Positions 116 through 24,921 of a stretch of 33,078 nucleotides of DNA are shown in pieces. The stretch spans positions 1 through 33,078 of the forward strand of contig JAHFEP010000002.1 in NCBI GenBank assembly GCA_023248415.1. Reading direction: 5' to 3'. Each line of letters begins with the position of its first letter. Within the stretch, counting starts at the first letter, position 1. The position numbers and the translations under genes are program-made. The notes beneath the pieces were generated by a model, which saw only the letters and a list, made by a program, of their open reading frames with translations, searched no databases and was not told the DNA's origin. Source of the stretch: Nitrospirota bacterium (GTDB lineage: Bacteria; Nitrospirota; CAKKRA01; 9FT-COMBO-42-15).

Positions 116-224
116 TGTATTTGCCCTCCTTTTATTAGATTATTTTGATTTAAATTACATCCTTTATATAAACCACTTTAACCAATATTTCAACTGCAAA
201 ATGAAATTTTAATGAATTTAAATA

Positions 225-1730: not shown

Positions 1731-1921
1731 ATTTTAAGGCTATTATGCCTCTTATCCTCCTATTTTTCAAGGATATTTTCAATATTCGCCTCACTTGACA
1801 AATAAATATTTTATGATACCTTTAAATTATGCAGTTTTAAGTATCTAACTATAGATTTAAAAGAGCGGCTCACTGAATTATCAGTGGATTTTATTAACAA
1901 AAATTATAAGGAGGATGGGCT

Positions 1922-2428: not shown

Positions 2429-2433
2429 TAAAT

Positions 2434-2480
2434 CCCCTCACCCTACCTCTCCCCTTTGTGGAGAGGATAAAGGTGAGGGG
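2434..2480. repeat. Nested hairpin repeat (CCCCTCACC ... GGTGAGGGG with inner CCTCTCC/GGAGAGG)
   Basis: Outer 9-bp stem 2434-2442 pairs with 2472-2480; inner 7-bp stem 2446-2452 pairs with 2460-2466. It lies 6 nt after the cytochrome stop. It shares the CCCCTCACCCC core with the element inside cca. Confidence 0.7.
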
Positions 2481-2510
2481 AACACTTTATCAAATATTTT
2501 TTTTTAATCA

Positions 2511-3887: not shown

Positions 3888-3900
3888 AGCGCCTCTGTCT

Positions 3901-3987
3901 GTCATTCCCACGAAAGTGGGAATCCAGTTTTTCGTTTTCTGAATTCCTGCTGGAGTTTACCCCTGCGAAGGCAGGGACAGGAATGAC
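3901..3987. repeat. Composite REP/BIME-like palindromic element (GTCATTCC ... GGAATGAC)
   Basis: Hairpin GTCATTCCCACGAAAGTGGGAATCC (3901-3925) plus CCTGCGAAGGCAGG hairpin, ending GGAATGAC. The first 25 nt are the exact reverse complement of 13586-13610. Confidence 0.75.
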
Positions 3988-4034
3988 AAAATAAATAAGA
4001 AGAAGCCTCTCTTTAGGCAGAAAGGACAAAGGTA

Positions 4035-4619
4035 GTGGGAAGACAATACTTTATTAAAAAAGGGTTCCAGTCAAAATTTATCATTAAATTCTGTCTTATT
4101 GTCATCTTGGGTGCAATAATCTCTGGAATTATCCTCTATGCCTCTACAAATCAAAGATTGGGCAATACCTATCTTGAATCATTAAATACCATAAAGGTGC
4201 TTAATGATAATCTTATAAGTAATCTTATATATACAAGCTTGGCTACAGTTATCTTCATCAGCATTGTAACAATTATTATAACCCTTTTCGCCTCACATAA
4301 GATTGCAGGACCCCTCTTCCGCCTTGAAAAGAACACTGAAATAATAGGCAATGGCGATTTAACCCTTGAGACAAGGCTAAGAAAGAATGATGAGATAACC
4401 GGTGTTGCATCAGCATTAAATGAGATGGCAGGAAAACTGCGCAGCAAAATGATAGACATAAGAACAGACCTTGAAGAGGTTAAAAAGGGCAGCGCTGATA
4501 TAGAATCAGCGATTAAGGATAAGAGGCTTTCTGAAAAAGAACTTAAAAAACAGATAACAAGGCTTTCAAATAGAATAAAAAGTTTAAACAGGGCAATATC
4601 AAAATTTACAGTTTCATAA
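4035..4619 (+). CDS. HAMP-domain membrane protein without recognisable output domain
   Basis: GTG start. N-terminal YFIKKGFQSKFI motif, two TM helices separated by ~26 aa, HAMP (SHKIAGPLFRLEKNTEIIGNGDLTLE...NEMAGKL), then a coiled-coil tail. Paralogue of 5505-6113. Confidence 0.75.
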   Translation: MGRQYFIKKGFQSKFIIKFCLIVILGAIISGIILYASTNQRLGNTYLESLNTIKVLNDNLISNLIYTSLATVIFISIVTIIITLFASHKIAGPLFRLEKNTEIIGNGDLTLETRLRKNDEITGVASALNEMAGKLRSKMIDIRTDLEEVKKGSADIESAIKDKRLSEKELKKQITRLSNRIKSLNRAISKFTVS

Positions 4620-4638
4620 TGCTGAGCTTGGCGAATGT

Positions 4639-5496
4639 ATGAAAAATAAATTATTTTTTATTATACTATCTATCCTAATTATAACCTTTTCAACAATTGC
4701 GTATACTGTCATAAATGATGTCCCGCATAATTACCGCCTTGATGAATGTCTCCAATGCCATATATCTATACCTGATGAAACAAAAAAAATAGATAAGCCC
4801 ATGAGATTTATAGATAATATAAACAAGCTCTGCCAGCGCTGCCACACAGAAGATATACAACTCTCTCATCCGGTGGGAGTCAAACCATCTATGTCTATAC
4901 CTGCAGACATGCCCCTTAATGAAATGGGAGAGGTCACTTGCGCCACATGCCACAATATACATCAGAAAAGAGATGATATATTAGGTGATAAGTCATATCT
5001 GTTGAGAAGAAATGTAATGGGAAAGGCATTTTGTATGGCATGTCACGGAAAAGATGAGGCTAAAAAAAATGTTGAGACCTTTTCACTCGGCATGAGGAAG
5101 GTCACAAAGCCTTCTCACAGGGAATTTTTGTCTGAGGCGCACGGATTTAAGAAATACAGGATTATTGACTCATCCTCTCCAATAGACAGCATTTCAATAG
5201 AATGTTTAGGGTGCCATGACGGAACAATAGGCGCTGATACACAGGTTACAATTGGCGCAGGTATCTGGCAGCATTCGGAGGCAAATGCAAGCAGCCACCC
5301 AATAGGGATAGACTATACCGCCGCACAGCTAAATAACAGAACATTAAGACCAATGGAGCAGTTAAATAAGGCGATAAAATTCTTTAATGGCAAGATTGGA
5401 TGCGGGTCTTGCCATAACCCGTATTCTAATGTAAGCACACAGCTTGTTATGAGCAATAAAGGGAGCGCCTTATGCCTTGAATGTCATAAGAAATAG
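4639..5496 (+). CDS. Heptahaem c-type cytochrome
   Basis: Signal anchor. Seven CXXCH motifs: CLQCH, CQRCH, CATCH, CMACH, CLGCH, CGSCH, CLECH. Confidence 0.8.
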   Translation: MKNKLFFIILSILIITFSTIAYTVINDVPHNYRLDECLQCHISIPDETKKIDKPMRFIDNINKLCQRCHTEDIQLSHPVGVKPSMSIPADMPLNEMGEVTCATCHNIHQKRDDILGDKSYLLRRNVMGKAFCMACHGKDEAKKNVETFSLGMRKVTKPSHREFLSEAHGFKKYRIIDSSSPIDSISIECLGCHDGTIGADTQVTIGAGIWQHSEANASSHPIGIDYTAAQLNNRTLRPMEQLNKAIKFFNGKIGCGSCHNPYSNVSTQLVMSNKGSALCLECHKK

Positions 5497-5504
5497 GAGG
5501 TAAG

Positions 5505-6113
5505 ATGGAGAAGCCAAAAGCAGAAACAAAGTTCAGAAGAAGAAACTTTTTTATAAAAAAGGGTTTTCAGGCAAAATTCATCCTGCGATTTATTTTAATT
5601 ATATTCTTAGGGATAGTGGTTTCAAGCGGTATTGTATACTATTTGACCTCAAAAAGGATAGAAGAGGTTTATTACCGCTCCCACATTAAGATTGCATCAA
5701 CAGGTGAGATAATATACCCCATTTTGCTTACTGCAAACATAATTACACTCGGCATAATAATAGTTGTCACCATTATAATAACCTTGCTAATATCGCATAA
5801 AATAGCAGGCCCGCTTTACAGGATAGAAAAGAGCATCCATGAAATAGGCGAAGGCAACCTTGCTTTTAAGATATATCTCAGGGCAAAGGATGAGCTTATA
5901 ACACTTGCTGAGATATTTAACAACATGATTACAAAACTGCGGGGTAGGATTGAGAGGATACAGGATGCTGCTAATTATATGGACAGCACAATCAATCAAT
6001 GGACAGTTATCAAAAAAATGGACAAAAAGGCATTATCAAAGGATATAACAGCCATCCAAAAGAAAGCTAATGAGATTGAAAAGGTAATTGCAACATTTAA
6101 GCTGGAGAAATAG
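5505..6113 (+). CDS. HAMP-domain membrane protein without recognisable output domain (paralogue of 4035-4619)
   Basis: AGGAGG 8 nt upstream. NFFIKKGFQAKFI motif, two TM helices, SHKIAGPLYRIEKSIHEIGEGNL HAMP, coiled-coil tail. Confidence 0.75.
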   Translation: MEKPKAETKFRRRNFFIKKGFQAKFILRFILIIFLGIVVSSGIVYYLTSKRIEEVYYRSHIKIASTGEIIYPILLTANIITLGIIIVVTIIITLLISHKIAGPLYRIEKSIHEIGEGNLAFKIYLRAKDELITLAEIFNNMITKLRGRIERIQDAANYMDSTINQWTVIKKMDKKALSKDITAIQKKANEIEKVIATFKLEK

Positions 6114-6121
6114 GCTCGGTT

Positions 6122-6958
6122 TTATTTTGCCGCTGGTTTATTATTGTTTGTCAAACCGAGGTCATTGACAACTTCTTTGATTATACTTGCATCAATCCTC
6201 AGTTTCTTTCTTAAAAATCCCTCTAACAAGGAGTTGTCGCATATAGTATTTATAAGCCTTGGTATGCCGTGGGAATAATTATGGATAGCCTCTAAAGCAT
6301 CCTTTGTAAAAAGCTCGCTGCTGCTGCCAGCTATTTTTAGCCTAAATTTTATATATTCCTCTGTAGTGCTCTCTTCAAATGACAGGAGCTTGTATCTCAT
6401 TGCTATCCTCTGCTTTAACGGCTCATCAAGAGAAAGGCATGCGTCCAGCTCTGGCATCCCAAAGAGCACAAAGGTTATTAATTTATTCCCGTCTGTCTCA
6501 ATATTCAGAATCCCCCTGAACTCCTCCATAAGCTCCTTTGTTTGAAGCATCTGGGCCTCATCTATCAGCACTACTGCCTTTTTCCCTTCTTCATGAATCT
6601 CTATCAAACGCTTGCAAAGCGTGCTGAGCAGTTCTGTCTTCTCATCAGGCAGATCTTCTACGCCAAGCTGTGTAATTATCTTTTTCAGCAGCCATTCAGG
6701 GGTAATGTTTGAATGTATAATGACAAGGAGCGCTGATTCATATTCCTTTTCACTCAATTCATCAAGCATCCTTCTTGCAAGGGTTGTCTTGCCTGTTCCA
6801 ATGCTGCCAACCAATATTGCAAGGCCCTTCATTGTATTTATTGCATGTTTCAGTCTTAACAGCGCCTCTGAATGCTGGGCGCTGTTATAATAAAACTTTG
6901 TATCAACAGTATTTGTAAAAGGCTGCTCTTTTAGTTTATAAAATTCAAGATAACTCAT
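6122..6958 (-). CDS. ExeA/MshM-like AAA+ ATPase
   Basis: Walker A GSIGTGKTT and Walker B VVLIDEAQ. Overall length and layout match the ExeA (GspA) / MshM family. Confidence 0.8.
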   Translation of the reverse strand: MSYLEFYKLKEQPFTNTVDTKFYYNSAQHSEALLRLKHAINTMKGLAILVGSIGTGKTTLARRMLDELSEKEYESALLVIIHSNITPEWLLKKIITQLGVEDLPDEKTELLSTLCKRLIEIHEEGKKAVVLIDEAQMLQTKELMEEFRGILNIETDGNKLITFVLFGMPELDACLSLDEPLKQRIAMRYKLLSFEESTTEEYIKFRLKIAGSSSELFTKDALEAIHNYSHGIPRLINTICDNSLLEGFLRKKLRIDASIIKEVVNDLGLTNNNKPAAK

Positions 6959-6970
6959 GCTTATAACCTC

Positions 6971-7050
6971 TTGCCCTATAGCCTATAGCCTATGGCCTTA
7001 TGACCTTTTGCCCTTTGCCTTTTGCCCTTAGCCCTTTGCCCTTTGCCTTA
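6971..7050. repeat. Low-complexity direct repeats (CCTATAG/CCTATGG units then CCTTTGCC(C) units)
   Basis: TTGCCCTATAGCCTATAGCCTATGGCCTTATGACCTTTTGCCCTTTGCCTTTTGCCCTTAGCCCTTTGCCCTTTGCCTTA fills the whole spacer between the TPR gene stop and the ATPase start. Confidence 0.6.
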
Positions 7051-7051
7051 A

Positions 7052-9937
7052 CTATATATACGAAACCTTGCCCTTTTTGCTCTTCTTAGCATTTACAGCA
7101 GTCTCTATATCTTTGACTATAATCGGCTCAGGCTCCTCAGGTTTTTCATCAATAATCTTTGACACCCTTTTCTCAAAAGTTACTTTCTTCTCCACTGGTT
7201 TTATATCTTCCATAGGTTTTTTCTTTGAAACCTGACTTCCTTTTAGTTTGTCTATCTTCTCTGCCACATCCCTGAAATTTACATCAATTCCATATACATC
7301 CATAAATGCCTTGTATGCATCTTCCATAAGACCCATCTCTTCATAAATAACAGCAAGGTCGTATTTTAAAGAGAGAAATTCTGATTCATTATATCTGGGG
7401 TCATCTATTGCCCTCTTTAATTGAGTAACTGCAAGCTGGTGCATCCCCTTTTCTTCAAAACATAGGGCAAGCATACTGCTTGCATCAAAAAATCTTTCAG
7501 CGCCCTTGATTGCGAGCTGGAATTCACCTATTGCCTCATTGATCAGGCCCATCTCCTTATATGCGATGCCAAGGTTATAATGGGTTTCATGGTCCTCATC
7601 TCCAAGATATTCCTTCACACCCTTTTTAAATTCATGGAATATATCGCTCAGCTCCATATCCTTCAATGCTTTTGACTCTGGCGCAGCAGGAGCAGCAGCC
7701 ATCTCCTCTTTTAATTCTTCTGAAAGGTCAAAGAAATTTCCTTCTTCAACCTCATCTTCCTTTTCTAATATCTTAAAGCTTGCGCCGCCCTTCTTCACTT
7801 CCATGCCAACATCTTCTTTTTTCTCAACTATAGGCGCTGCCCTCTTATCTGGCTTAATGGTATTAAGCAGTTTGTCTAATCTTTCCTTAACCTCCTGATT
7901 ATCAGGCTGAATTGCAAGTATCCTTTCATAAATACCCTGTGCCTCTGGCACTAATCCCTGCTGGCTATAAAAATCTGCCTCTGCAATAAATTCCTGGATA
8001 TTTTCTAAAGAAACAGGCGGAAATTCTGCAGCCGGCTGAATCTCCTCTACAGGCTCTGCAGGCTCAAACGATTCAACAATTGGAATTTCTGCAACTGCCT
8101 CTTCTATCTCATGAGCAGGCACAGACTCAATATCTTCTGGTTTTTCAGGCGAAACAATAGATGCTATCCCCTCCAAGTCAAAATCAGTAAGCTCTACTGT
8201 CGGGATTCCTCTTTCTGCTGCTGCTTCTTCACGCGGCATCTCCGTCTGTTTTATCAAGGGAGCCCCTACAAGCGCACTTAATCTATTCCTCACCCTTTCG
8301 TTATCAGGGTCTAATTCAACGGCCTCTTTTAATGCCTCTTCTGCCTTCTTAATATCCCCTTTTTCATGATGCAGCCTTGATATTACTATGCACTCTTCTA
8401 CTGCCTTTGGGGTATTTCCCTCTATCTTGTAAATGTCCTTTAGCTTCTTACGCGCCTTCAGCTCACTTGGCTTAATCGCCAAAATAAGTTCTAACTGCTC
8501 AATGCTTTTATTTGTAAGCCCATATTTAAGATATACATCAGCCTCTGTGTAGCAGCCATCAATCTTTTCTGCATCCTCATCTGATATCGCCTGTTCCTCA
8601 ACACCAGCAAAGGACTGTATAACAGGAGGCGTCTCTTTAATCTCAGGTTTAATTTCTGGTTTAATCTCAGGCTTTATCTCTGCCTCAACCTCTCGCTGAA
8701 TTATCTTTTCAGGTTTTACAACTGTTTCTGACTGAACCTCTTTTTCCGGAGCCTTTTCCTGCGGCCTCTCCCTTGCAGAAATATCATCTAATCTCTTCTT
8801 TGCCTCAATATTATTTGGGTCTATTTTCAGAACTTCCCTATATACATTTGCAGCCTTCTCTAAATCAGACTGCTCCAAATAGATATCTGCAATAGACAGA
8901 TACTCTGCTATCTTGCCGCCCTCATTGCCTGTCTTTTCATAAACATCAATGAGCATTGTGTGGGCATCAATGTTTTTATTGTCTGCCTCAAGAATATCCT
9001 GAACAATCTTTTTTATCTTGTCAAATTCATGTTTCTGGGCATAGTCATCAATGATTATCTTAAACTCGGAAATGGCATTGCCAAATGCCCCCTTTCTTAA
9101 GAATACATAGCCTAATTTCTCATGATGTGCTGGATCAGCAGTCTCCAATGTTATCAGATGCCGCAAACCTTTTTCTGCCTTTGCATAATCGCCTGACTTG
9201 GTGCATGCATCAATAAACAGATTCAGGGTTTTTACATCGTCCGGCCTCTTTTCAAGGATGCCTTCCAGTATATTTATACCGTCCTGCAGTTTATCCTGTT
9301 TTAGCCTTAGATTTCCTATTCCGAAGGCAGCCTTCCTGTTCTCATGGTCAATGGAGAGCGCCTGATTAAAGAAGCTCTCAGCCTCTTTGACATCATTATT
9401 TTTCACATATACTTCTGCTATCTTATTGTATTCATCTGCTGCGTCCTTTTTAAGGCCCTCTTTGAGGCACATCTCTGCAATTCTCTGATGAACGCTGATA
9501 TTATCAGGCTCCAAGTCTGCAATCTTTTTATATACAGCAACAGCCTGTTTGCTCTGCCCCTGTTTTTGATAGAGCCTTGCAGCCTTTAGATAATCGTCTC
9601 TGGCGTTCCCTATCAAACCCCTCTCTGCATTAAGTGCAGCCAATTTTAGATACACCTCTATATTCTCAGGGTCTATCTTGTTAACCTTTTTATAGAGTGC
9701 GATTGTCTTTAAGGCAAAGCCAGCCTTGTAAAATGAATCGCCTGCTTTTATATATGCTGAAACTGCTTCTTGAATAGAGTTATTCCTAAGATACAGGTCG
9801 CCGATGGTATTATAGATATTGCCGTCGTTCGGGCTTTCCTGGATGAGCTTCTGCCACTCCTCAATGGCCTTGTCAAGCTGGCCTCTGGCAGTATATTTTT
9901 GGGCATTTTTTAATATGGTATTTTTATCTAATGGCAA
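7052..9937 (-). CDS. Large TPR-repeat protein with acidic/Pro-rich linkers (MshN-like partner of the ATPase)
   Basis: TTG start. Multiple TPR-type helical repeats (e.g. AIEEWQKLIQESPNDGNIYNTIGDLYL) in N-terminal, central and C-terminal blocks. The blocks are separated by E/P/K-rich low-complexity segments. Confidence 0.8.
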   Translation of the reverse strand: MPLDKNTILKNAQKYTARGQLDKAIEEWQKLIQESPNDGNIYNTIGDLYLRNNSIQEAVSAYIKAGDSFYKAGFALKTIALYKKVNKIDPENIEVYLKLAALNAERGLIGNARDDYLKAARLYQKQGQSKQAVAVYKKIADLEPDNISVHQRIAEMCLKEGLKKDAADEYNKIAEVYVKNNDVKEAESFFNQALSIDHENRKAAFGIGNLRLKQDKLQDGINILEGILEKRPDDVKTLNLFIDACTKSGDYAKAEKGLRHLITLETADPAHHEKLGYVFLRKGAFGNAISEFKIIIDDYAQKHEFDKIKKIVQDILEADNKNIDAHTMLIDVYEKTGNEGGKIAEYLSIADIYLEQSDLEKAANVYREVLKIDPNNIEAKKRLDDISARERPQEKAPEKEVQSETVVKPEKIIQREVEAEIKPEIKPEIKPEIKETPPVIQSFAGVEEQAISDEDAEKIDGCYTEADVYLKYGLTNKSIEQLELILAIKPSELKARKKLKDIYKIEGNTPKAVEECIVISRLHHEKGDIKKAEEALKEAVELDPDNERVRNRLSALVGAPLIKQTEMPREEAAAERGIPTVELTDFDLEGIASIVSPEKPEDIESVPAHEIEEAVAEIPIVESFEPAEPVEEIQPAAEFPPVSLENIQEFIAEADFYSQQGLVPEAQGIYERILAIQPDNQEVKERLDKLLNTIKPDKRAAPIVEKKEDVGMEVKKGGASFKILEKEDEVEEGNFFDLSEELKEEMAAAPAAPESKALKDMELSDIFHEFKKGVKEYLGDEDHETHYNLGIAYKEMGLINEAIGEFQLAIKGAERFFDASSMLALCFEEKGMHQLAVTQLKRAIDDPRYNESEFLSLKYDLAVIYEEMGLMEDAYKAFMDVYGIDVNFRDVAEKIDKLKGSQVSKKKPMEDIKPVEKKVTFEKRVSKIIDEKPEEPEPIIVKDIETAVNAKKSKKGKVSYI
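8636..8683. repeat. 12-bp tandem repeat x4 inside the TPR gene (encodes PEIK x4)
   Basis: TTTAATCTCAGG / TTTAATTTCTGG / TTTAATCTCAGG / CTTTATCTCTGC. The protein reads EIKPEIKPEIKPEIKE. Confidence 0.8.
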
Positions 9938-9979
9938 GCGAAATCCCTCATTTTAAAGATATTTTCAGTGCTATATTAA

Positions 9980-18596: not shown

Positions 18597-18606
18597 CATT
18601 AAAACA

Positions 18607-18636
18607 GCAAGAGAGCAAGAGAGCAAGAGAGCAAGA
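18607..18636. repeat. 8-bp tandem repeat GCAAGAGA x3.75
   Basis: GCAAGAGA GCAAGAGA GCAAGAGA GCAAGA, lying between the DUF4388 stop and the lipoprotein signal-peptide coding region. Confidence 0.85.
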
Positions 18637-18822
18637 AAAACAGAAGGGATAATAAAAGCTCTATTATACCTTTCTTTAATTCTGATATTTTCATCCTGTG
18701 CTACACCAAAATCCATTGACAGCCTCTTAATCCTTCCTACACCAATACAGAACCCAAAATATAAGGTCTCAGGCAATACCATCATCTATGAAGACAATAA
18801 TGTCTCTGTAGTAGTAAAACAC

Positions 18823-19263
18823 TTGAACCCGTTAATGCTTAACAACTATTATATGGAAAGAAATCTTATAAACCCCTTTGCTGATTTTCCGGGAGATAAG
18901 AAATTCACAGTATTTGCTGTCAGATTCTTAAACAATTCTAAGGACAAGATAACATATAATCCCATGATGTCTGCTATGTTTGAGGGAAATGAAAAACCCA
19001 TACGGCCAATTGATGTTACAGATTTTTATATGCTCTTAAGCGAAGACCCGAATGTTGAAGCACGAATGAAGATGATTAAAAAGACAGCCTATGATGTCCA
19101 GTTTGTCTTACAGAGCAAAGAGCAAAAGGAAGCGATTCTGATTTTTCCTGCTATTGATTTGTCAACAAAGAATGTAACATTAATACTTAAAGATATGTAT
19201 TTCGGTTTTAAATGGGCTAATCTTCCCTTTGCGTTTGATGTGATGAAAAAGAAAGAAAACTAA
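18823..19263 (+). CDS. Putative lipoprotein of unknown function; the real 5' end is probably upstream (about 18649)
   Basis: The track ORF starts at TTG 18823. The same frame is open back to 18571 and encodes IIKALLYLSLILIFSSC, a signal peptide plus lipobox-like Cys, at 18649-18699. Confidence 0.6.
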   Translation: MNPLMLNNYYMERNLINPFADFPGDKKFTVFAVRFLNNSKDKITYNPMMSAMFEGNEKPIRPIDVTDFYMLLSEDPNVEARMKMIKKTAYDVQFVLQSKEQKEAILIFPAIDLSTKNVTLILKDMYFGFKWANLPFAFDVMKKKEN

Positions 19264-19274
19264 GCTCCTTTCCC

Positions 19275-19700
19275 TTCCCAATCACTATATTACGCCCTCT
19301 GTTTGATGCTGTAGAGCACTATGGCAAACCAAAATCTTTACGGACAGACAATGAACATCTCTTTACCTCATGGCTATTTAAATTCAGCTTATGGCTAATG
19401 GGTATTCGTCATCAGCTTATTGACAAGTGTTGTCCCTGGCAGAATGGACGGGTAGAGCGATTCTTTGGCACATTAAAAGAGAAGCTAAATCAATGGCAGG
19501 TAAACAATAGGGAACAACTTAATGGAGCGCTTGCTCAGTTTCGGTTCTGGTATAACCATGTTCGGCCGCATCAAAACCTGAACGGCAAAACGCCAGCAGA
19601 GGTTTGGAAAGGAATAGACATCTTTATCAGAAGACCCAAAAAGGAATACTGGTTTGAGGCATGGGATGGGCTTTTGACAGGGATATATCTGAAGATTTAA
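19275..19700 (+). pseudogene. 5'-truncated DDE (rve/integrase-core) transposase remnant
   Basis: The frame is open from 19239. YGKPKSLRTDNEHLF (second catalytic D) is followed 36 residues later by PWQNGRVERFF (catalytic E) and WYNHVRPHQNLNGKTPAEVW. The N-terminal HTH and first D are absent. It starts directly after the lipoprotein stop. Confidence 0.75.
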
Positions 19701-19854
19701 TCTGCCTATTAATTATAGTTGGCTAAAATTAGATTTGGAAAAAGAGGGTGTCCGTGGGAGGTTTGTGTTTATAAGTTAAACCTGACTGAAAATATTTCAA
19801 GGACATAAAAAAACAATACAAAAATACCGTTTAGAAGAAAAAAATTATGACAAA

Positions 19855-20019
19855 GAAGTTAAAATAACGCCTGATTACTTAAAAAAATAGCTCAAGCAAC
19901 GCAGGAAAGGTCTTACGGACAGTCGGACAGGACACAGAGAAGTTAAAATAACAGCGGATTTTCTAAAAAACAACTCAAGAATCAACAGGAACGGTCTTGC
20001 GGACAGACGGACAGGACAC
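19855..20019. repeat. Two tandem ~81-bp direct repeats (period 84 bp, ~80% identical)
   Basis: Both units run GAAGTTAAAATAAC...CTCAAG...GGTCTT(A/G)CGGACAG(T/A)CGGACAGGACAC (19855-19935 and 19939-20019). Confidence 0.8.
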
Positions 20020-20297
20020 CTCCTGCCAACTGCATCATAAGCAAGGCTGAAGCCTTGCCCTACACTGTTGATTAATGTATTAATACCTGTCAAGCGACTA
20101 TTAGAGTCGTAGCTATAACTCACCGTCGGCTGTCCCGCTACTGTCATGCTTGTCCTTCTCCCTATAGCATCGTATGTATAGTCAATAGCCCCCAGAGGTG
20201 TTACCTCCTTTATCACCTTGTCTGCAGCCCCACCACTGCAACTGCCTGTGCTGCATCCACTATTGGAATAGGTATAGGAGATAGAACCAGAGTGCAT
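20020..20297 (-). pseudogene. Rhs/YD-repeat core fragment
   Basis: YD repeats IDYTYDAIGRRTS, VSYSYDSNSRLTG and LAYDAVGRR. The frame then reads through the 81-bp repeats (CPVRLSARPF... twice), which is not Rhs sequence. Confidence 0.7.
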
Positions 20298-20329
20298 TTT
20301 ATGAGATGTGCTTCTCTAAACCAAAGCCT

Positions 20330-20887
20330 TCAGGTTGATTTATCTTCTATATCTTCTAATATGGATGTGCCAAGTCTCCTTTCTAATTTGGCAATGTAAA
20401 TTAATATAAATATCTGACTAATAAACCAAGCAATGCCACCCCCTACTGATACTATTTGTAAAAGTTGCTCCATGTGCCATTGCCGCAATCTTCTCAACAG
20501 ATGAAATGAATTAACTGCTGTGATTATTAATACCATCAATAAACCTCCCTTAAATTTAGCAAATTTAGTATCCTGTCTATAATATATAACATTACCCTTA
20601 ATCTTTTTCTCTATTACTTTTTTACATAAATAATACATCGGAATGCTTAATATTATACCAGTAAGAATTTTCTCTGGTATCTTTTTTGTCATATCACCAA
20701 CAGACAAGGATACTATCATCAACAGAAGCAAGCTCACTCCTAAGATATAGTAAGTGCTTTTTTTAAATAATCTGCCTTTAAAAACATAACTTTTTGCAAT
20801 CAAGCGCCATATAATAAGAATTATCATTCCTATTACTGCAACAACTAAATTCATAATGTGCCTCACTATGCCTGTAATAACAAGCAA
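20330..20887 (-). CDS. Polytopic membrane protein, candidate immunity protein for the upstream Rhs C-terminal domain
   Basis: 185 aa with ~5 TM segments. It starts 18 nt after the Rhs-CT stop. No recognisable family. Confidence 0.45.
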   Translation of the reverse strand: MLVITGIVRHIMNLVVAVIGMIILIIWRLIAKSYVFKGRLFKKSTYYILGVSLLLLMIVSLSVGDMTKKIPEKILTGIILSIPMYYLCKKVIEKKIKGNVIYYRQDTKFAKFKGGLLMVLIITAVNSFHLLRRLRQWHMEQLLQIVSVGGGIAWFISQIFILIYIAKLERRLGTSILEDIEDKST

Positions 20888-20905
20888 CAGATATTTACTA
20901 TCATT

Positions 20906-21625
20906 TCAATTGCAGCACCAATCATTCCCAGGTGGACAATAAGGGTCTACGGGTGGTCTAGGCGGACCGGGGGGCTTAGGCGGCTTGGGTGGATGACACC
21001 AGTAATCACATCCATATATACAAAAAATAGACGTACCAGCCCAACAAAGTGCTGTACACACTGGCATATATGGTCCAGCAGTTGCGCAAACATAGGCACA
21101 ATACATCGTCCCCCCTCCTCCACAAATAAGGCCACATGCAACATCACAACCTGTTACTTCTAATCCAAGGGGGTCAGTAAAGTTTATTGGCCGATTTCCC
21201 ACATAACTGAAAAAGTTAATATCTCCACCTTTTAATCTTATCGGGTCTTCTGATATAAACCTCTGCAGTTCAGGCGAGTAGTATCTTGCCCGATAGTAAT
21301 ACAACCCAGTCCCATTATTCTCTCTACCTGTGTATTGAAAAGGATTATCACTTGCCTCGCCTGTTATTGTTACAGCGCCAAAGGGGTCATAGGAGTAAGT
21401 TGTTTTAACTGCTCCTGTATTGTCTGTCAATGCTATCACTGAACCCAAAGCATCAGTCTGATAAAAGCGCAATGCGTTAGGCGTGATGCGGGCAAGAGGC
21501 TCGTCAATGTTCAATGTGCGGATGTAATTAATAGACACAGCTCCGCCCTCAATCTCCTGCACTATATCTAAACCATCATAAAGATACTGCTTTGTGATGC
21601 CGTTGATGGTCTTTTCTACGGACAC
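20906..21625 (-). CDS. Orphan Rhs C-terminal module: last YD repeats, DPxG-x19-DPLGL cleavage motif, 84-aa Cys/Pro-rich C-terminal domain
   Basis: YYYRARYYSPELQRFISEDPIRLKGGDINFFSYVGNRPINFTDPLGL, then EVTGCDVACGLICGGGG...HPPKPPKPPGPPRPPVDPYCPPGNDWCCN. GTG start with AAGGAAAG upstream. The Rhs N-terminus and most of the core are absent. Confidence 0.75.
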   Translation of the reverse strand: MSVEKTINGITKQYLYDGLDIVQEIEGGAVSINYIRTLNIDEPLARITPNALRFYQTDALGSVIALTDNTGAVKTTYSYDPFGAVTITGEASDNPFQYTGRENNGTGLYYYRARYYSPELQRFISEDPIRLKGGDINFFSYVGNRPINFTDPLGLEVTGCDVACGLICGGGGTMYCAYVCATAGPYMPVCTALCWAGTSIFCIYGCDYWCHPPKPPKPPGPPRPPVDPYCPPGNDWCCN

Positions 21626-21638
21626 TATTTCTTTCCTT

Positions 21639-22142
21639 CTACTTCTTCATAGATGTTTTCTTCAATATCAATTTTCCCAGTGCAATACCAATACCTATAT
21701 AAACTAAAACATCAAAAAAGGTAGTAAGTGTATCCCTAAGAAAATTAATAGTAATAGTGGATACAACAATAATACCCCCATCTGGCATTTTAACCTGATT
21801 GTATGACTGATTGTATGGAAAGAGAATTTCAAATATTCCTGAGATAGGTTTTAAAATCCAACCTGCTCCTCTTAACAAAATATGAGCTAAATAACTTGAG
21901 AAAAGCGAAGTATATACTGCAAGCACATTGAAGAGAATCAAGAATAAAGTCCCCACCACATTTAGCAATAAACCTATTCGTGCCCATTTCAGCCAGCCTG
22001 ATGCCTTTGGGAAATACTTGTTCGGCAAAAAAAGCAACAAAAATCCAACCCAAAAAAAGAATATTGATGGCATCTTTCCACCACTTAAGAAAGGAGCGAG
22101 AAATCCACAGATAATAATTAAAAAGCCCAAGAAATTAATCAT
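21639..22142 (-). CDS. Polytopic membrane protein, candidate immunity protein
   Basis: 167 aa with ~5 TM segments. It starts 38 nt after the second Rhs-CT stop. No recognisable family. Confidence 0.45.
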   Translation of the reverse strand: MINFLGFLIIICGFLAPFLSGGKMPSIFFFWVGFLLLFLPNKYFPKASGWLKWARIGLLLNVVGTLFLILFNVLAVYTSLFSSYLAHILLRGAGWILKPISGIFEILFPYNQSYNQVKMPDGGIIVVSTITINFLRDTLTTFFDVLVYIGIGIALGKLILKKTSMKK

Positions 22143-22180
22143 TCTATTATTATTTTCCCCTGTCCACTTTACTCAATTTA

Positions 22181-22543
22181 TCACCGTTGACATATCGTTC
22201 TCCACACGTTGGGAAGGGTCGTAGGGAAAAATATCATAAAAGTTGTATCACCTGCGATTCGTCTTTCATATTTATCAGAGGCTGTTGTATTTTCGGTTTT
22301 AATATAACAATTGCTGCAATCATCACAACATAAATAATAAATTGTAATATACCTCTTCATCCATCCTACCTCATATTTCCCCCAGTAACAATATCCAAGG
22401 ACTCCTTCAATCCTAGTTTCCCTACTTTCTACTCGCCACTCTGTTCGCCAAATGTCAAATTGATAGCCTGTTGTTGTCGACCATATCGGTACACAAAATA
22501 GGCCTAATGGATCAACCCAATTAATGACAGGACAGGACAGGAC
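22181..22543 (-). pseudogene. Rhs 3' remnant: ...INWVDPLGL followed by a 105-aa unrecognised C-terminal domain
   Basis: DPLGL is encoded at 22513-22499 and the CT at 22498-22181. The track ORF's N-terminus (to 22579) lies inside the inserted element, so there is no native start. Confidence 0.6.
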
Positions 22544-22546
22544 AGG
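22527..22546. repeat. Pentanucleotide microsatellite (ACAGG)x4
   Basis: ACAGGACAGGACAGGACAGG lies directly against the left inverted repeat of the Y1 element. It is read as PVLSCPV in the Rhs remnant frame. Confidence 0.85.
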
Positions 22547-23466
22547 GTCAAGTCTTGAAATATTAGTTCCTCCCTTCAACCTCTTTAATTGCTTTGCTTA
22601 TTGTAGTATAGTGGAGTCTCAGATAATCTGCAATCTCTTTTAATTTGTAGCCATATCTTATATGGGCCTGATATATCGCCTCTTTCCTCTTGCCACTGTC
22701 CTGCCTATCCTTAAATAGCTTTGCAAGCTCAGGTCTGCCAATATATCTCTGGCGCCTCGGTATCTCCTTTATCTCCTTCTTGTCTGATAATAATTCCTTA
22801 AATCTTGTGATAAATTCATCTTCTCCAAGCAGTATCTGGCCTTTTATCTCATCCCACGGCTTTCCTTTGTTATTCCCTGCCTTGACAAATTCTGCATATC
22901 TCTTTTCTGCCTTCTTTCTTTTGCTCCCAAATTGTCCAAGTATCCAGTCTACTGTAAGATATAAAGGAGTCTTTGTCTTGCCTATAGCAGCTAAATAGCT
23001 GCTCCATCTCCATTCCTCTGGCCTTTTTATAATGCCTGCTCTTACAGGGTTTAATACTACATATCTGCATAGCTCAAGCAGGTATTCTTCTTTTTCTACC
23101 AATATAGCCTTATATCTGCCTTGAAAGATATGTCCTGTCTTCTTATGCCTTCTATTGTATGCCTGTGTGTATACTCCATTTAGCTGCCTCATGCCTAAAG
23201 ACAGGTTAGGTTCAGGGGTTTCTATCATTATATGATAGTGATTGTCCATTAAACAGTAGGCATGGCAGAGCCAATTGTACCTTTTTATAACTGAACCTAA
23301 TATCTCAAGAAATAGCTCTCTATCTTTATTATCCTTGTATATTTTACTCCTTGCATTCCCTCTTGAGGTTATATGATATACTGCATTAGGGTATTCTATC
23401 CTTAATGGTCTTGACATAGCATTTTTATTATAGCATCGCAATATTTATTTTTCAAGACTTGACCCT
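22544..23466 (-). mobile_element. IS200-like (Y1/HUH transposase) element bounded by a perfect 15-bp inverted repeat
   Basis: AGGGTCAAGTCTTGA (22544-22558) is the exact reverse complement of TCAAGACTTGACCCT (23452-23466). Both are followed inward by AATATT, with a 6-nt indel on the right side. A single transposase gene lies between them. Confidence 0.7.
22563..23417 (-). CDS. Y1 (HUH) tyrosine transposase, IS200/RAYT-like, with C-terminal DnaA-C-like HTH domain
   Basis: RIEYPNAVYHITSRGN and HUH motif MDNHYHIMIE, with catalytic-Tyr region GHIFQGRYKAILV. C-terminal YQAHIRYGYKLKEIADYLRLHYTTISKAIKEVE is HTH-like. The ATG at 23417 is preferred over the TTG at 23441. Confidence 0.8.
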   Translation of the reverse strand: MSRPLRIEYPNAVYHITSRGNARSKIYKDNKDRELFLEILGSVIKRYNWLCHAYCLMDNHYHIMIETPEPNLSLGMRQLNGVYTQAYNRRHKKTGHIFQGRYKAILVEKEEYLLELCRYVVLNPVRAGIIKRPEEWRWSSYLAAIGKTKTPLYLTVDWILGQFGSKRKKAEKRYAEFVKAGNNKGKPWDEIKGQILLGEDEFITRFKELLSDKKEIKEIPRRQRYIGRPELAKLFKDRQDSGKRKEAIYQAHIRYGYKLKEIADYLRLHYTTISKAIKEVEGRN

Positions 23467-24071
23467 CTTTCTTCTCTTATGAAACGACCTATCTTCGCAT
23501 CATAATATCTTGCCCTGTAGTAATATATCCCTGATTCCTCGTCATATTCTCTACCAGTATAAGTATACGGTTGCACAAAAGAGGAGTCAAGCTGATAGGT
23601 TATCTCTCCGAAGCTGTTGTATTCATACCTCTGCACCACATTGCCAGAGCTATCTGTTATGGCGATGATGCTTCCCAGTCCATCGGCATGGTAATAATAT
23701 GTCTGATTGTTTCTTATCATTGCAATCGGCTCATCAATGCCTGGGCCGTGAAGGTATTCAGTTACGATATTGCCAGACGCGTCTAACTCAAACAAAATGT
23801 CTTCTCGGTCATAGACATATTTCTTAATAGTGACAGTGTTAGTAGCAGTGTCGGTAACAGACTTCTCAATCCTACGACCAAACGGATCATATTTATAAGT
23901 TACGAGTTGCGAGTTAGGAGTTGTGAGTTGAACAAGACGGTTTTCGGAGTCGTATTGATATGTAGTTGTTCCTGTAGTATCGGTTTTTGATGTCATATTG
24001 CCATTAGCGTCATATGTAAAGCCCGTGCCGTTCTGTGTTAAAAGCTCATTGCCATTGTTGTAAGTATACAC
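23445..24071 (-). pseudogene. Rhs core C-terminal fragment, truncated at both ends
   Basis: YD repeats (FTYDANGNMTS, YQYDSENRLV, YKYDPFGRRIEKS, YEYNSFGE) and YYYRARYYDAKIGRFI. The frame then runs into the right IR of the Y1 element (REERGSSLEK stop) before any DPxGL motif. Confidence 0.75.
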
Positions 24072-24074
24072 ACT

Positions 24075-24491
24075 TTATCTTTTATACCATAAATATAATT
24101 TAACTGTAAGAACAATAATCATTAATCCAACAAGACCTCCTACTATCCAGCCTAAAAAAGTTTTAATCAATCCAGCAATTAATCCTATACTTGCTCCACC
24201 AATCGCCAAACCTAAAAAAAGCCCAATCAACTTCATATCTATGTCTAAACCACCTGAAAAATGCGCAATAATAAATAAAATTATTATCAATATAGTAAGC
24301 AGCAAGCCATATAATATTGTTTTAAAAGAAGGATATTCGCTTGTTCCAATAAATTCAAACCCAAACTTTACAAAATATCCAATATAACCAAGTATAAAGA
24401 AGAATATAGCTACTTTAATAAAAATTCTTATTTCTTTATCCCACTTCTCAAAAAGTTTAATTATCCAATTATCTATTGAAAAATTTCCCAT
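24075..24491 (-). CDS. Small polytopic membrane protein (Gly-zipper-rich), possible orphan immunity gene
   Basis: 138 aa with 3-4 TM segments (GLAIGGASIGLIAGLIKTFLGWIVGGLVGL). Very A/T-rich. Its stop lies 3 nt before the Rhs fragment. Confidence 0.45.
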   Translation of the reverse strand: MGNFSIDNWIIKLFEKWDKEIRIFIKVAIFFFILGYIGYFVKFGFEFIGTSEYPSFKTILYGLLLTILIIILFIIAHFSGGLDIDMKLIGLFLGLAIGGASIGLIAGLIKTFLGWIVGGLVGLMIIVLTVKLYLWYKR

Positions 24492-24614
24492 ATTTTATGG
24501 CAATCCATAAAATCTTCTTAACGGTAATAAAGAATTCCACAAATCAGTGAAAGCATTGGAAAGCATTGGGGTCACCCTTTTAGACTTTTAGATATGCTTT
24601 TAGAAATGATTAGA

Positions 24615-24644
24615 AGAGGAGAGATAATTAATTATCTCTCCTCT
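24615..24644 (-). terminator. Perfect 30-bp palindrome overlapping the rpsR stop codon (probable operon terminator)
   Basis: AGAGGAGAGATAATT|AATTATCTCTCCTCT. The rpsR TAA lies in the loop region. On the - strand the downstream sequence is only moderately T-rich. Confidence 0.45.
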
Positions 24645-24862: not shown

Positions 24863-24921
24863 ATTTTAAATTCTCCTCTTAGAATAGGTCATATGGGACT
24901 TATAAGACCTATTTTTGAATA

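Follow-up and report, generated by a model that had tools for sequence, protein, structure and literature searches.

The island at positions 19264 to 24614 of the window, by which we mean the whole 33,078-nucleotide stretch of Nitrospirota DNA analyzed here, is a decayed mosaic of displaced Rhs toxin-tip/immunity pairs. Most probably, it is a strain-specific fragment of a mosaic Rhs displacement array that was split from its parent and then decayed, with immunity genes that are likely protective. In the source array, successive rhs core pieces would each have been followed by a polymorphic toxin tip and an immunity gene. After separation of the fragment from any parent, decay would have reduced CT0 to a 17-codon stump, ended core A at a Y1 element, left CT2 coreless, and cut the fourth module at an insertion sequence (IS), with the three polytopic-membrane immunity genes and the core B/CT1/imm1 orphan still intact. 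The locus is of a kind already known (a bacterial-warfare locus) and represents an ordinary finding with some unusual details. Its features and those of its flanks are as follows.

18649..19263, + strand: flank; gene convergent with rpsR that encodes a lipoprotein (lipobox SSC; 203 in-frame codons)
19281..19700, + strand: IS481/IS3-like transposase remnant, aa 166 to 304, in frame
19850..20019, − strand: two tandem 84-bp copies of the IS right terminus (GTGTCCTGTCCGnCTGTCCGnAAGACC…)
20020..20297, − strand: N-terminal piece of a fourth orphan module (P0024-like, ca. 400 aa), cut by the IS end
20330..20887, − strand: imm1, polytopic membrane protein of 174 to 185 aa (hydropathy, L027 homology)
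20906..21625, − strand: intact orphan, B-type core tail (155 aa) plus 84-aa CT1
21639..22142, − strand: imm2, polytopic membrane protein of 167 aa (hydropathy, L027 collinearity)
22181..22525, − strand: CT2 remnant, last 9 core codons (PINWVDPLGL) plus 105-aa CT2
22526..22546, − strand: (GACAG)4 run at the Y1/CT2 junction, resembling the first ca. 19 nt of the IS end
22544..23466, − strand: Y1 element with a Y1/HUH gene (HYH motif) and C-terminal HTH (ORF 22563-23441, −)
23445..24071, − strand: core fragment A, A-type Rhs shell tail, no toxin attached
24075..24491, − strand: imm0, polytopic membrane protein of 138 aa (hydropathy, P0121 homology)
24495..24546, − strand: CT0, 3' stump of a lost toxin gene, ca. 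17 codons plus stop
24547..24614, − strand: unassigned island-end DNA, 68 nt, containing GGGTGACCCC and two copies of AATGCTTTCC
24615..24644, no strand: flank; perfect palindrome with 15-nt arms, including the rpsR stop codon (inverted repeat I8)

Toxin tips and immunity genes of the array

Window positions 24546 to 24082 were 92.5% identical to positions 9946 to 10410 of L112, a locus of a related MAG, where the end of a 255-aa Rhs-CT orphan (…RDLWNSLLPLRRFYGLP*) is followed by another gene. The product of the latter (P0121), encoded 4 nt after the orphan and downstream of a full-length Rhs protein of 2,818 aa, was 90% identical to imm0, which we regard as the putative immunity gene of the lost CT0 module. 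Among 5.8 billion proteins, only 4 relatives of imm0 turned up. The neighboring core fragment A contains RHS repeats and the first 48 of the 76 positions of Rhs_assc_core (HMM domain calls) and stops at RFIREE, ca. 25 aa short of DPxGL. Its identity is 74% with the core of the L112 parent (2,818 aa) and 53% with a Nitrospinota Rhs protein in L003.

The only intact orphan consists of core B and CT1. Core B contains a complete Rhs_assc_core (DPIRL…DPLGL; 87 bits versus a cutoff of 32.5) and corresponds to the final ca. 150 residues of Rhs and TcC shells whose structures have been solved. CT1, with 13 cysteines in 84 aa and a polyproline tail, was modeled (pLDDT of 78) as two 26-residue helices that form a hairpin, with a predicted five-rung cysteine ladder whose mirror-symmetric positions are conserved in P0005. 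This relative, 45% identical over the CT, is followed in L027 to L029 by a gene 43% identical to imm1, and the last 112 nt of imm1 are 94% identical to L027. We regard imm1 as the predicted partner of CT1.

The CT2 remnant has neither a core nor a start codon, and its homology to an intact module in L027 (82% aa and 91% nt identity) begins exactly at position 22525. We considered whether the core tail at 24071 to 23445 and DPLGL-CT2 were halves of one interrupted gene and rejected this, as they belong to different Rhs subtypes. Relatives of CT2 are always C-terminal on Rhs carriers, among them an uninterrupted 480-aa Rhs fragment and a 1,001-aa Rhs protein, and always directly follow PINWVDPLGL; an imm2 homolog comes next after the Rhs-fused relatives. 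CT2 and imm2 are collinear with L027 (86% nt identity over 886 nt), the pair is present in both L027 and L028, and imm2 is 71 to 77% identical to homologs in arrays that carry CT2, of which it would be the cognate partner. CT2 contains 7 cysteines in 105 aa, and its structure model was weak (pLDDT of 67).

The piece of the fourth module, 80% identical to positions 9926 to 10213 of L025, lies in an ORF (19875-20297, −) with a YD repeat detected by HMM. The adjoining units are collinear with the IS in L025 and L030, and homology stops at the outer end of the unit. They had been described as 81-bp repeats; the repetition held (2.0 copies), but the period is 84 bp, and the repeated sequence is the IS terminus. 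The transposase remnant, cut within ca. 17 nt of the island boundary, includes the C terminus of an IS3/IS481 integrase (ORF 19398-19700, +; HMM). It is 82% identical in amino acids to the transposase of L025, and L030 carries aa 187 to 304.

Both CT/membrane-protein pairs are also neighbors in other arrays, which supports the layout of displaced orphan rhs-CT/immunity modules proposed in a preliminary description of this DNA, and the YD fragments pass Rhs HMM thresholds rather than falling into a nontoxin family. As noted there, the three membrane-protein genes are A/T rich (GC content of 27 to 34% versus 39.6% for the window), and their products are polytopic (ca. four hydrophobic segments each and GRAVY values of 0.70 to 1.19, by hydropathy), with no match to Pfam or NCBIfam families. 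Both CTs, called unrecognizable, indeed matched no Pfam or NCBIfam family and, in fold or sequence, no characterized toxin. Sister modules bear known toxin domains (Tlde1, PLA2, M23, and NlpC/P60).

Parent type and possible exchange with the array

The L112 parent (2,818 aa) combines Kelch, Big_5, TIG, NHL, and CarboxypepD_reg domains with 12 RHS repeats and a DPLGL-CT; its N terminus is signal-like, judged by eye, and domain analysis found no PAAR in it. Judging from this protein, the parent type in the clade appears to be teneurin-like, with a Sec signal (by eye) and a Kelch/Ig/NHL/YD-shell architecture without PAAR or VgrG, and the clade's arrays would sit behind such giant YD-shell proteins, not behind T6SS PAAR-Rhs proteins. 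Within the window, the reported absence of a parent rhs, PAAR, VgrG, or other delivery gene was borne out by a Pfam scan, in which none of 30 ORFs matched PAAR, VgrG, T6SS, or T7SS (a few ORFs of at least 100 aa, among them 32049-32954, lay outside the scan). With a parent type of this kind, Sec-signal bearing and PAAR free, the lack of T6SS-type genes is to be expected.

We infer that the immunity genes, presumably expressed at present, shield the cell from matching Rhs toxins of neighboring relatives. These toxins would be small and Cys rich, would probably fold oxidatively, and would probably attack the cytoplasmic membrane from the periplasm; such a target would account for the membrane embedding of all the immunity proteins. 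Along similar lines, the CTD of a bacterial teneurin-like protein (TLP) shows toxicity only once exported to the periplasm and causes membrane damage (PMC13018210).

The retained core pieces could in principle recombine with a parent rhs at some other genomic locus. It is conceivable, although doubtful, that the array is an active toxin reservoir, as in the classic orphan model. The core fragments would then act as homology arms through which CT1/imm1, or CT2/imm2 once repaired, could be joined to a full-length rhs gene elsewhere in the same genome and so change the deployed toxin. Core B (465 nt) and core A (ca. 600 nt) offer sufficient length for homologous recombination, there is experimental precedent (Salmonella, PMC3967940; Poole et al. 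2011, PMC3150448), and the array is a mosaic, with closest relatives that differ by segment and break points in core sequence, as repeated core-mediated exchange predicts. However, of the four toxin parts, a single one is intact, and the public-data matches listed, which also missed the L112 parent, included no near-identical parent core. The best protein identities were 81% (core A) and 84% (core B), the best 120 matches for each being 163 to 416 aa long, and the sole full-length parent found was 74% identical in amino acids and ca. 76% in nucleotides, which is low for efficient RecA recombination.

Insertion site and preservation of the island

The island is strain specific and lies where the rpsR and lipoprotein genes converge, at a variable insertion site in the genome of an uncultured Nitrospirota bacterium. 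Alignment to the empty-site contig L122 (positions 2676 to 2943 corresponding to window positions 24881 to 24614 and 2941 to 6870 to 19264 to 15331) defined an insertion of 5,351 bp at window positions 19264 to 24614, in agreement with the preliminary description, which had placed the island at 19263 to 24600 and whose ORFs were all found at their given positions. The insertion point is bordered on one side by the lipoprotein stop codon and on the other by the right arm of the rpsR terminator, the palindrome at 24615 to 24644 probably being a bidirectional terminator. The comparison of syntenic genomes suggested there revealed an empty site in two related Nitrospirota contigs, L122 and L123, where the rpsR terminator abuts the lipoprotein stop codon and the two stop codons are only 16 nt apart. 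A strain 96% identical has an island-free allele (L023), and in L126 and L127, the same site holds a different 3.4-kb insert with unrelated cargo. The flanks are ordinary housekeeping DNA, syntenic in relatives (the lipoprotein is 87% identical to a 204-aa protein of L122). As to taxon, every protein in the PEP carboxylase cluster comes from a Nitrospirota MAG. No IS ends were found at the island borders, the sole junction feature being a CTT trinucleotide at each of the two junctions, and the 68 nt at 24547 to 24614 matched neither any of the loci compared nor the rest of the window.

Two further assemblies cover this region: L001 (ENA assembly; 7,109 nt at 99.8%) extends from ychF-rpsF-ssb-rpsR through the whole array into the IS remnant, and L002 (Logan; 2.3 kb at 100%) confirms the Y1/CT2/imm2 joins. 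Because of these independent assemblies and the empty-site relatives, a hidden rhs gene contiguous with the fragments, against which the preliminary description had cautioned, is excluded.

That the island is inert debris seems unlikely to us. It would then be a neutral remnant of an array that was acquired horizontally or rearranged, tolerated in the permissive space that two convergent genes leave and heading to deletion. Of its four toxin parts, three have been destroyed, two mobile elements lie inside the island, close relatives (including the 96%-identical strain) lack it, and its site carries unrelated cargo in other genomes. The dN/dS values, all from single pairwise comparisons with small counts, were ca. 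1.25 for CT2 and 0.71 for imm2, as expected of such debris, and 0.49 for imm1 (saturated dS), those of imm2 and imm1 being compatible with relaxed constraint; in contrast, imm0 had a value of 0.19. Also at odds with debris, all three immunity genes are intact and full length, with neither frameshift nor stop, amid broken toxins, and the core B-CT1 ORF keeps a complete autoprotease core domain.

It is very unlikely that core B-CT1/imm1 is a self-contained intracellular TA-like module and not an intercellular weapon or shield. A Salmonella orphan Rhs has been described as a type II TA-like module (PMC7043789), and the core B-CT1 ORF has, besides its complete Rhs_assc_core, a GTG start with AAGGA upstream; however, because its 13 cysteines lie in a predicted mirror-symmetric ladder, CT1 would fold oxidatively outside the cytoplasm, and its partner imm1 is no soluble antitoxin but a polytopic membrane protein. 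An assembly chimera joining a foreign rhs array at a repeated sequence is extremely improbable: the window is of metagenomic origin, has repeats and an IS at the low-coordinate end, and alone covers the junction at 19264 to 19630, but L001 and L002 support the remaining joins, and because the flanks adjoin in L023, L122, and L123, the chimera would have had to enter and leave at one base of one genome.

Relation to known systems

The C-terminal displacement model of rhs was reportedly put forward by Jackson et al. in 2009. As in the orphan rhs-CT/rhsI modules of Enterobacteria (Poole et al. 2011, PMC3150448; Koskiniemi et al. 2014, PMC3967940), a module of the island runs from an rhs core piece via DPxGL to a polymorphic CT and has a small ORF downstream, with ragged core lengths, a mosaic makeup, and the same CT on longer Rhs proteins elsewhere. 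Unlike them, the island lacks an upstream parent rhs, is inserted precisely amid housekeeping genes of a Nitrospirota genome, contains a Y1 element that interrupts it and an IS end that caps it, and has only polytopic membrane proteins as immunity proteins; instead of PAAR/VgrG, teneurin-like domains and a Sec signal mark its apparent parent type.

The L112 parent resembles Sec-dependent YD-shell toxins such as TLPs and WapA (PMC13018210; PDB 9ifo and 9pt5) in its signal-like N terminus, NHL repeats, YD shell, and small polymorphic CTD, in the small gene that follows it, and in the lack of a dedicated secretion system in its vicinity. Unlike TLPs, it has Kelch, Big_5, TIG, and CarboxypepD_reg domains, in a comparison of domains other than the TIP domain and FN-plug that define TLPs, and the window itself holds no such parent. 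Orphan arrays are not mentioned in the TLP paper (PMC13018210), where "orphan" has 0 occurrences.

Like orphan immunity arrays, the island keeps immunity genes without a working toxin, lies beside mobile-element genes, and is strain variable. The acquired interbacterial defense clusters of Bacteroidales are arrays of this kind. Others are known from the Vibrio cholerae T6SS (PMC5361080) and the Rhs orphan immunities of Serratia (PMC10539506). Unlike in those arrays, recognizable toxin remnants still surround the immunity genes here, one toxin module has stayed intact, and an array-dedicated recombinase is not evident in the island.

Pore-forming colicins, CdiA-CT EC93, and TspA/TsaI are membrane-acting toxins with polytopic-membrane immunity, and the island pairs share with them short toxins and integral-membrane immunity proteins of ca. 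four hydrophobic segments. The predicted helix-loop-helix of CT1, with CxxxC rungs facing across the hairpin, recalls the CxxxC…CxxxC helical hairpins of plant alpha-hairpinins (PMC7191063), although these have two rungs and CT1 has five potential rungs plus a PPxPPx tail. No sequence or fold match of the CTs to any of these proteins was found.

The Y1 element

The Y1 protein (HYH motif at residue 60) scored 51.9 bits for Y1_Tnp and 86.8 bits for REP_Tyr_transpos, above the NCBIfam RAYT cutoff of 80, and shares the HUH (HYH) motif and the conserved Tyr with RAYTs and IS200-IS605 Y1 transposases. Just as RAYT genes are flanked by inverted REPs, the element is flanked by inverted repeats of 17 to 20 nt (AGGGTCAAGTCTTGAAA; I5) that are 95% complementary and contain a small palindrome. 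Unlike RAYTs, the protein has ca. 290 aa with a C-terminal HTH extension, the element lies at a junction inside an rhs array, and only two flanking repeat copies occur in 33 kb, with no dispersed REP population here. The inverted-repeat core is also present in about 60 of 80 relatives, and a promoter-like site (TTGAAA-17-TATAAT; 11 of 12 consensus matches) overlaps the left repeat of the element.

Composition of the island

We regard the island (window 19264-24614, 5,351 bp, read on the - strand) as a real, parentless and decayed mosaic array of Rhs toxin/immunity modules inserted at a hotspot of a Nitrospirota genome. The window is metagenome-derived, and the structure of the island was repeated by two separate assemblies, L001 (99.8% identity across 7.1 kb, from ychF through the array to the IS remnant) and L002 (100% identity across 2.3 kb, spanning the Y1 element, CT2 and imm2); housekeeping proteins placed the organism in the Nitrospirota. 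In reading order, with CT for a C-terminal, toxin-position domain and imm for an immunity-position gene, the island holds a CT0 stump, imm0, core A, the Y1 element, a CT2 remnant, imm2, core B with CT1, imm1, a fragment of a fourth module, two 84-bp units and the IS remnant. All the ORFs listed in the preliminary description were recovered where it had placed them, on the - strand, and the parts recognized by domain were the following:

23445-24071, - strand: core A, with three RHS repeats and Rhs_assc_core positions 1 to 48 of 76, breaking off at RFIREE
22563-23441, - strand: Y1/HUH transposase gene, above the NCBIfam cut-off for RAYTs (REP-associated tyrosine transposases)
22544-23466, - strand: whole Y1 element, bounded by 17-20-nt inverted repeats (AGGGTCAAGTCTTGAAA)
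20906-21625, - strand: core B + CT1, with a complete Rhs_assc_core, DPLGL and then 84 residues
19875-20297, - strand: YD fragment, a YD repeat from the middle of the shell
19398-19700: integrase C-terminus of the IS3/IS481 type, found by profile search

The Rhs_assc_core profile (TIGR03696) matched the ORF at 20906-21625 over all 76 positions with 87.2 bits (cut-off, 32.5) and core A over positions 1 to 48 with 43.4 bits, while the RHS_repeat matches scored 65.8, 26.1 and 35.6 bits (cut-off, 22). CT2 is preceded by nine core codons plus DPLGL; Rhs core coding is thus retained upstream of the DPxGL demarcation, which is a feature of orphan modules. Profile searches gave no family match for the three immunity-position ORFs or for either CT, in line with the first reading, and a hydropathy scan bore out that the three ORFs encode membrane proteins, with about four hydrophobic segments each. 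Their genes are indeed A/T-rich (27 to 34% GC, versus 39.6% for the window). One detail had to be corrected: the supposed 81-bp repeats have a period of 84 bp, in two copies.

Orphan modules lie behind a full-length rhs gene; here, rpsR is directly upstream of the island, and no large YD protein was found in the 33-kb window. The absence of delivery genes held as well, with no match to PAAR, VgrG, T6SS or T7SS among the 30 window ORFs scanned against Pfam, in which the locus differs from those of T6SS-delivered Rhs effectors.

A precise insertion at a variable gap

A profile scan of the window ORFs confirmed that the island is flanked by ordinary housekeeping genes, and syntenic contigs of relatives were obtained via PEP carboxylase. 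The empty site proposed between the lipoprotein gene and rpsR was found in two of them, L122 and L123, in which only 16 nt separate the end of the ychF-rpsF-ssb-rpsR series from the stop codon of a convergent gene for a 204-aa lipoprotein. These 16 nt are the right arm of the rpsR terminator palindrome. The alignment of both relatives to the window is broken exactly at 24614 and 19264, with CTT common to both island junctions and no flanking bases lost. For the 68 nt with which the island ends on its rpsR side, no match was found in the fetched loci or in the rest of the window.

A 96%-identical strain from a sister sample (L023) is island-free as well. In this strain, a further 15 nt have been deleted, joining the fifth-from-last codon of the lipoprotein gene to the terminator arm, and we dropped L023 as a pristine empty site; it is an island-free allele with a 15-nt deletion, the true empty sites being L122 and L123. 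Its reading as proof of an ancestral island that was later deleted was likewise revised after comparison with those two contigs. Other relatives have different contents at this place. L126 and L127 (1597-5018) carry another 3.4-kb insert at the same gap, made up of a Y1 gene, a PIN toxin gene and small ORFs; the flanks of L118 are rearranged (at about 5030), with a synteny break and pyruvate:ferredoxin oxidoreductase genes, and L125 shows a synteny break too. Judged by these sequence comparisons, the convergent rpsR/lipoprotein gap is therefore a recurrent landing place, a hotspot for variable DNA.

At 24615-24644, the window has a perfect palindrome with 15-nt arms and the rpsR stop codon at its center. 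Since in the empty-site relatives the lipoprotein stop codon lies just past the other arm, a single hairpin is probably the terminator of both convergent genes. The lipoprotein gene of the window has 203 codons, all in frame, is 87% identical to that of L122 and begins with ATA (ATG in the relatives), which could reflect loss of the start codon, a noncanonical start or a variable 5' region. Just upstream of it, at 18606-18636, is a perfect tandem repeat, (AGCAAGAG)x3.9.

Toxin/immunity pairs recur in other arrays

Core B + CT1 and core A were each searched against 5.8 billion proteins, giving thousands of Rhs matches each. The best 120 of the thousands in each search were proteins of 163 to 416 aa with a ragged core tail followed by an unrelated C-terminal domain, and the sources named for the best matches were Nitrospirota, Thermodesulfovibrio, “Candidatus Sulfobium” and Nitrospinae MAGs. 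Among these short Rhs-tail proteins, the core before DPxGL spanned 110 to 350 aa, a spread that rules out a stand-alone family with a fixed start. Some sister modules carry recognizable toxin domains (Tlde1, phospholipase A2, M23 and NlpC/P60). On the contigs of the matches, we found long arrays, with at least eight modules in a row in L025 and at least seven in L027; IS elements are scattered through many of them, and some lack a long rhs gene in the surrounding 10 kb.

The pairs of the island recur in these arrays, which upheld the original interpretation of the layout as displaced rhs-CT/immunity modules. CT2 is 82% (protein) and 91% (DNA) identical to the C terminus of an uninterrupted 480-aa Rhs fragment in arrays L027 and L028, the gene that follows it there is 71 to 77% identical to imm2, and collinearity with L027 extends over all of CT2-imm2 (86% over 886 nt). 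When 1.8 billion representatives were searched exhaustively with HMMER, CT2 turned up in only five further clusters, in all of them C-terminal and directly after PINWVDPLGL; its carriers include the 480-aa L027 fragment, the 1001-aa Rhs protein P0126, P0029 and P0125 to P0129. For CT1, the closest relative is P0005 (45% over the CT), followed in L027 to L029 by a gene 43% identical to imm1. CT1 relatives were found on short orphans only (P0005 and P0109), so fusion of the domain to a longer Rhs protein, which holds for CT2, holds only in part for CT1. In both cases, the small downstream ORF, the candidate immunity gene, covaries with the CT, as CT2/imm2 and CT1-like/imm1-like pairs recur in L027 to L029.

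The head of the island has another source. Only four relatives of imm0 were found, and one of them, 90% identical, lies in the related MAG locus L112, separated by 4 nt from the 255-aa Rhs-CT orphan that precedes it. The final ca. 17 codons of the toxin of that orphan survive in the window directly ahead of imm0 (24546-24495), at 92.5% DNA identity. This stump, together with the likeness of core A to the full-length parent in L112, indicates that the head derives from a parent-linked, A-type array, and by sequence comparison the remainder is derived from B-type arrays such as L027 and L025. The last ca. 112 nt of imm1 with its downstream spacer (20322-20433) are 94% identical to L027 3400-3511, compared with 43 to 47% identity over the whole imm1 protein and its L027 homolog, which indicates that a recombination breakpoint lies within imm1.

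A Y1 element at the junction of two Rhs subtypes

The Y1 protein has the HUH motif (HYH at residue 60), a catalytic Tyr (Y112 and Y119 are invariant between two aligned homologs) and scores above threshold with NF047646 (86.8 bits; cut-off, 80) and PF01797 (51.9 bits; cut-off, 23), as expected of a RAYT or IS200/IS605 Y1 transposase. The CT2 module is homologous to its intact counterpart from exactly 22525 onward, right after a (GACAG)4 run; the Y1 element lies upstream of the run, and core A ends at the opposite inverted repeat. About 18 core codons are missing at this place, and the Rhs subtype differs between the two sides. Therefore, the Y1 element marks a junction rather than a simple insertion. 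That core A and CT2 are the halves of one gene split by the element was rejected on the same grounds, as the L027 partner of CT2 has a B-type core and core A is of the other subtype.

A tie between the Y1 family and Rhs arrays was suggested by L003, a Nitrospinota Rhs locus found via core A that has a Y1 homolog with the same repeat core. As a general rule it was ruled out: across 421 kb from 80 metagenome loci that carry Y1 relatives, no homolog of Rhs, a CT or an immunity gene was detected. The family is thus an autonomous element, widespread and not specially linked to Rhs. The core of the inverted repeat is common to Y1 homologs in L003 (27 nt, perfect), L126 and about 60 of the 80 metagenomic relatives; in the 33-kb window, the repeat occurs only in the two flanking copies. 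Members of the family (window 22544-23466; L003 2322-3358; L126 about 1739-2748; L032 to L111) are single-gene elements of about 0.9 to 1.0 kb whose protein has a C-terminal HTH. The repeat core, GGGTCA(G/A)(G/A)(T/C)CTTG, has its left arm about 45 nt before the ATG and its right arm 10 to 25 nt after the stop codon, and is kept even between proteins with 36% identity. The best promoter-like site in the island is that of the Y1 gene (23427-23455, - strand; TTGAAA-17-TATAAT, with an upstream TG, 11 of 12 matches). Its -35 hexamer falls inside the left inverted repeat, which suggests that the gene may be autoregulated through the HTH domain of its protein.

A probable IS end that recurs where modules begin

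With 80% identity to the P0024 module of L025, the YD fragment represents the beginning of a fourth module, which is cut off by the two tandem 84-bp units. These units, the ca. 150 nt beyond and the transposase remnant (amino acids 166 to 304 left, in frame from 19281; rve_3, 63.5 bits) are collinear with an IS481/IS3-like element that terminates the L025 and L030 arrays in very different genomic surroundings, with homology stopping at the outer end of the unit. Collinearity across the three loci suggests that one IS terminus is present, with the motif GTGTCCTGTCCGNCTGTCCGNAAGACC as a candidate for its outermost bases. Neither a left end nor an intact copy turned up in the loci compared. Each of the three arrays, in its different context, ends with the unit followed by an opposite-strand transposase, whose truncation point differs between the window and L030 and which is a 304-aa ORF in L025.

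In L025 and L030, partial copies of the unit also border internal modules on their 5' side, always in array orientation, and the (GACAG)4 run ahead of CT2 is similar to the first bases of the unit. Copies of the 84-nt unit were located as follows:

L025: 11-43, 1725-1757, 9864-9927 and 11162-11227
L030: 1719-1754 and 3406-3481
window: 19850-20019

The internal copies may be scars of IS-mediated truncation or an inter-module repeat targeted by the IS. Putative solitary right-end scars at internal 5' boundaries and the capping of three arrays are the basis for reading these elements as movers of cassettes. On this reading, which we consider unlikely, Rhs cassettes of the Nitrospirota clade would be captured, truncated and moved by the IS481/IS3-like element, beside core-to-core homologous recombination, and would carry a new class of cysteine-ladder, helical-hairpin membrane toxins; parentless arrays could thereby reach permissive hotspots, such as the rpsR/lipoprotein gap, as portable immunity islands.

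A full-length parent in a relative

In L112, the 255-aa orphan is preceded by a 121-aa gene and a 2,818-aa protein (192-8648). The latter has a signal-like N terminus (judged by eye), a Kelch propeller and Big_5, TIG, Glucodextran_B and CarboxypepD_reg domains, followed by NHL repeats, twelve RHS repeats, an A-type core, DPLGL and a Cys/Pro-rich CT; a domain scan found no PAAR. Core A is 74% identical to its core (306 bits). Despite this score, the parent was missing from the match list of the large protein search; therefore, the lack of long proteins among the best matches is partly a property of the database, and it is unsafe to conclude from the absence of full-length Rhs among the 240 best matches that parents are absent from the clade. 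Searches of this size can miss full-length Rhs parents, as happened here.

The NHL repeats of the parent matched PF01436 (1e-10), with TEN_NHL under its cut-off, and its YD-shell regions matched the structures 9ifo and 9pt5 of bacterial teneurin-like proteins (TLPs) at about 1e-30, a weaker match than the one to T6SS Rhs shells. TLPs proper are further marked by an N-terminal TIP domain, present in 96% of them, and an FN-plug (PMC13018210). The parent, a candidate TLP at most, looks more like Sec-dependent, teneurin-like YD proteins than like PAAR-Rhs effectors. With a teneurin-like, PAAR-free parent type, the puzzle of the “missing secretion machinery” is removed.

Predicted architecture of CT1

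Both domains are rich in cysteine (13 in 84 aa for CT1; 7 in 105 aa for CT2). Five models of CT1 (pLDDT, 72 to 78) agreed on a hairpin built of two helices of 26 residues each, with an extended PPxPPx tail behind it; this polyproline tail is conserved within the CT1 family. The ten hairpin cysteines (window 20996-21160) are mirror-symmetric, in five pairs with i + j = 60 (5/55, 9/51, 13/47, 21/39 and 25/35), and the 45%-identical P0005 has a matching symmetry in residues 244 to 294 (i + j = 55). In the model, this is the pattern expected for a five-rung disulfide ladder. Foldseek against the PDB gave nothing significant for CT1 (pLDDT, 78) or for the weak model of CT2 (pLDDT, 67), and the sequence search of the PDB with CT1 gave no match; in sequence as in fold, neither domain could be matched to a solved structure. 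Sister CTs (P0004, P0027, P0094, P0111 and P0113) share the short length, hydrophobicity and Cys richness, so that the family of such toxins may be a larger one.

A recently studied bacterial teneurin-like toxin must reach the periplasm to do harm, which it does there by damaging the membrane (PMC13018210). Because of this precedent, together with the small size and Cys richness of the domains, the hairpin model of CT1 and the polytopic partners, the CT toxins are probably extracytoplasmic and membrane directed.

Decay, selection and relation to known systems

The three immunity-position genes and one orphan toxin ORF are intact, the other toxin parts being a stump, a toxin-less fragment, CT2 without its core and a truncated start. 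Pairwise dN/dS values against the closest relative were 0.19 for imm0, 0.49 for imm1 (dS saturated), 0.71 for imm2 and about 1.25 for CT2; the counts are small, so these values amount to a hint and not to proof. If maintained at all, the island would be kept for immunity against matching toxins of neighboring relatives, with a residual potential as a recombination substrate.

[quoted passage not shown] Immunity genes that outlast their toxins are a parallel with the orphan immunity arrays of Vibrio and Serratia. Some originality can be claimed for the precise insertion with empty-site controls, the Sec/teneurin-like lineage rich in orphan arrays, the probable IS end found repeatedly at the borders of modules and the toxin predicted to form a cysteine-ladder hairpin, with its membrane-protein immunity partner. 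If our reading is right, the orphan-module biology of Enterobacteria also holds in an uncultured phylum of environmental importance, whose Rhs proteins seem to be teneurin-like surface proteins exported through Sec, with no T6SS; there, array pieces can persist apart from any parent, the immunity genes outlasting the toxins. It would also supply two putative toxin domains with membrane-embedded immunity partners, CT1 having an unusual predicted architecture. Current understanding is not overturned; this is a well-documented case and no surprise.

Elsewhere in the window, between an AAA_22 ATPase gene and a 961-aa TPR gene (6975-7049), there are heptamer tandem repeats, CCTATAG and TTTGCCC, in up to about 8 copies.
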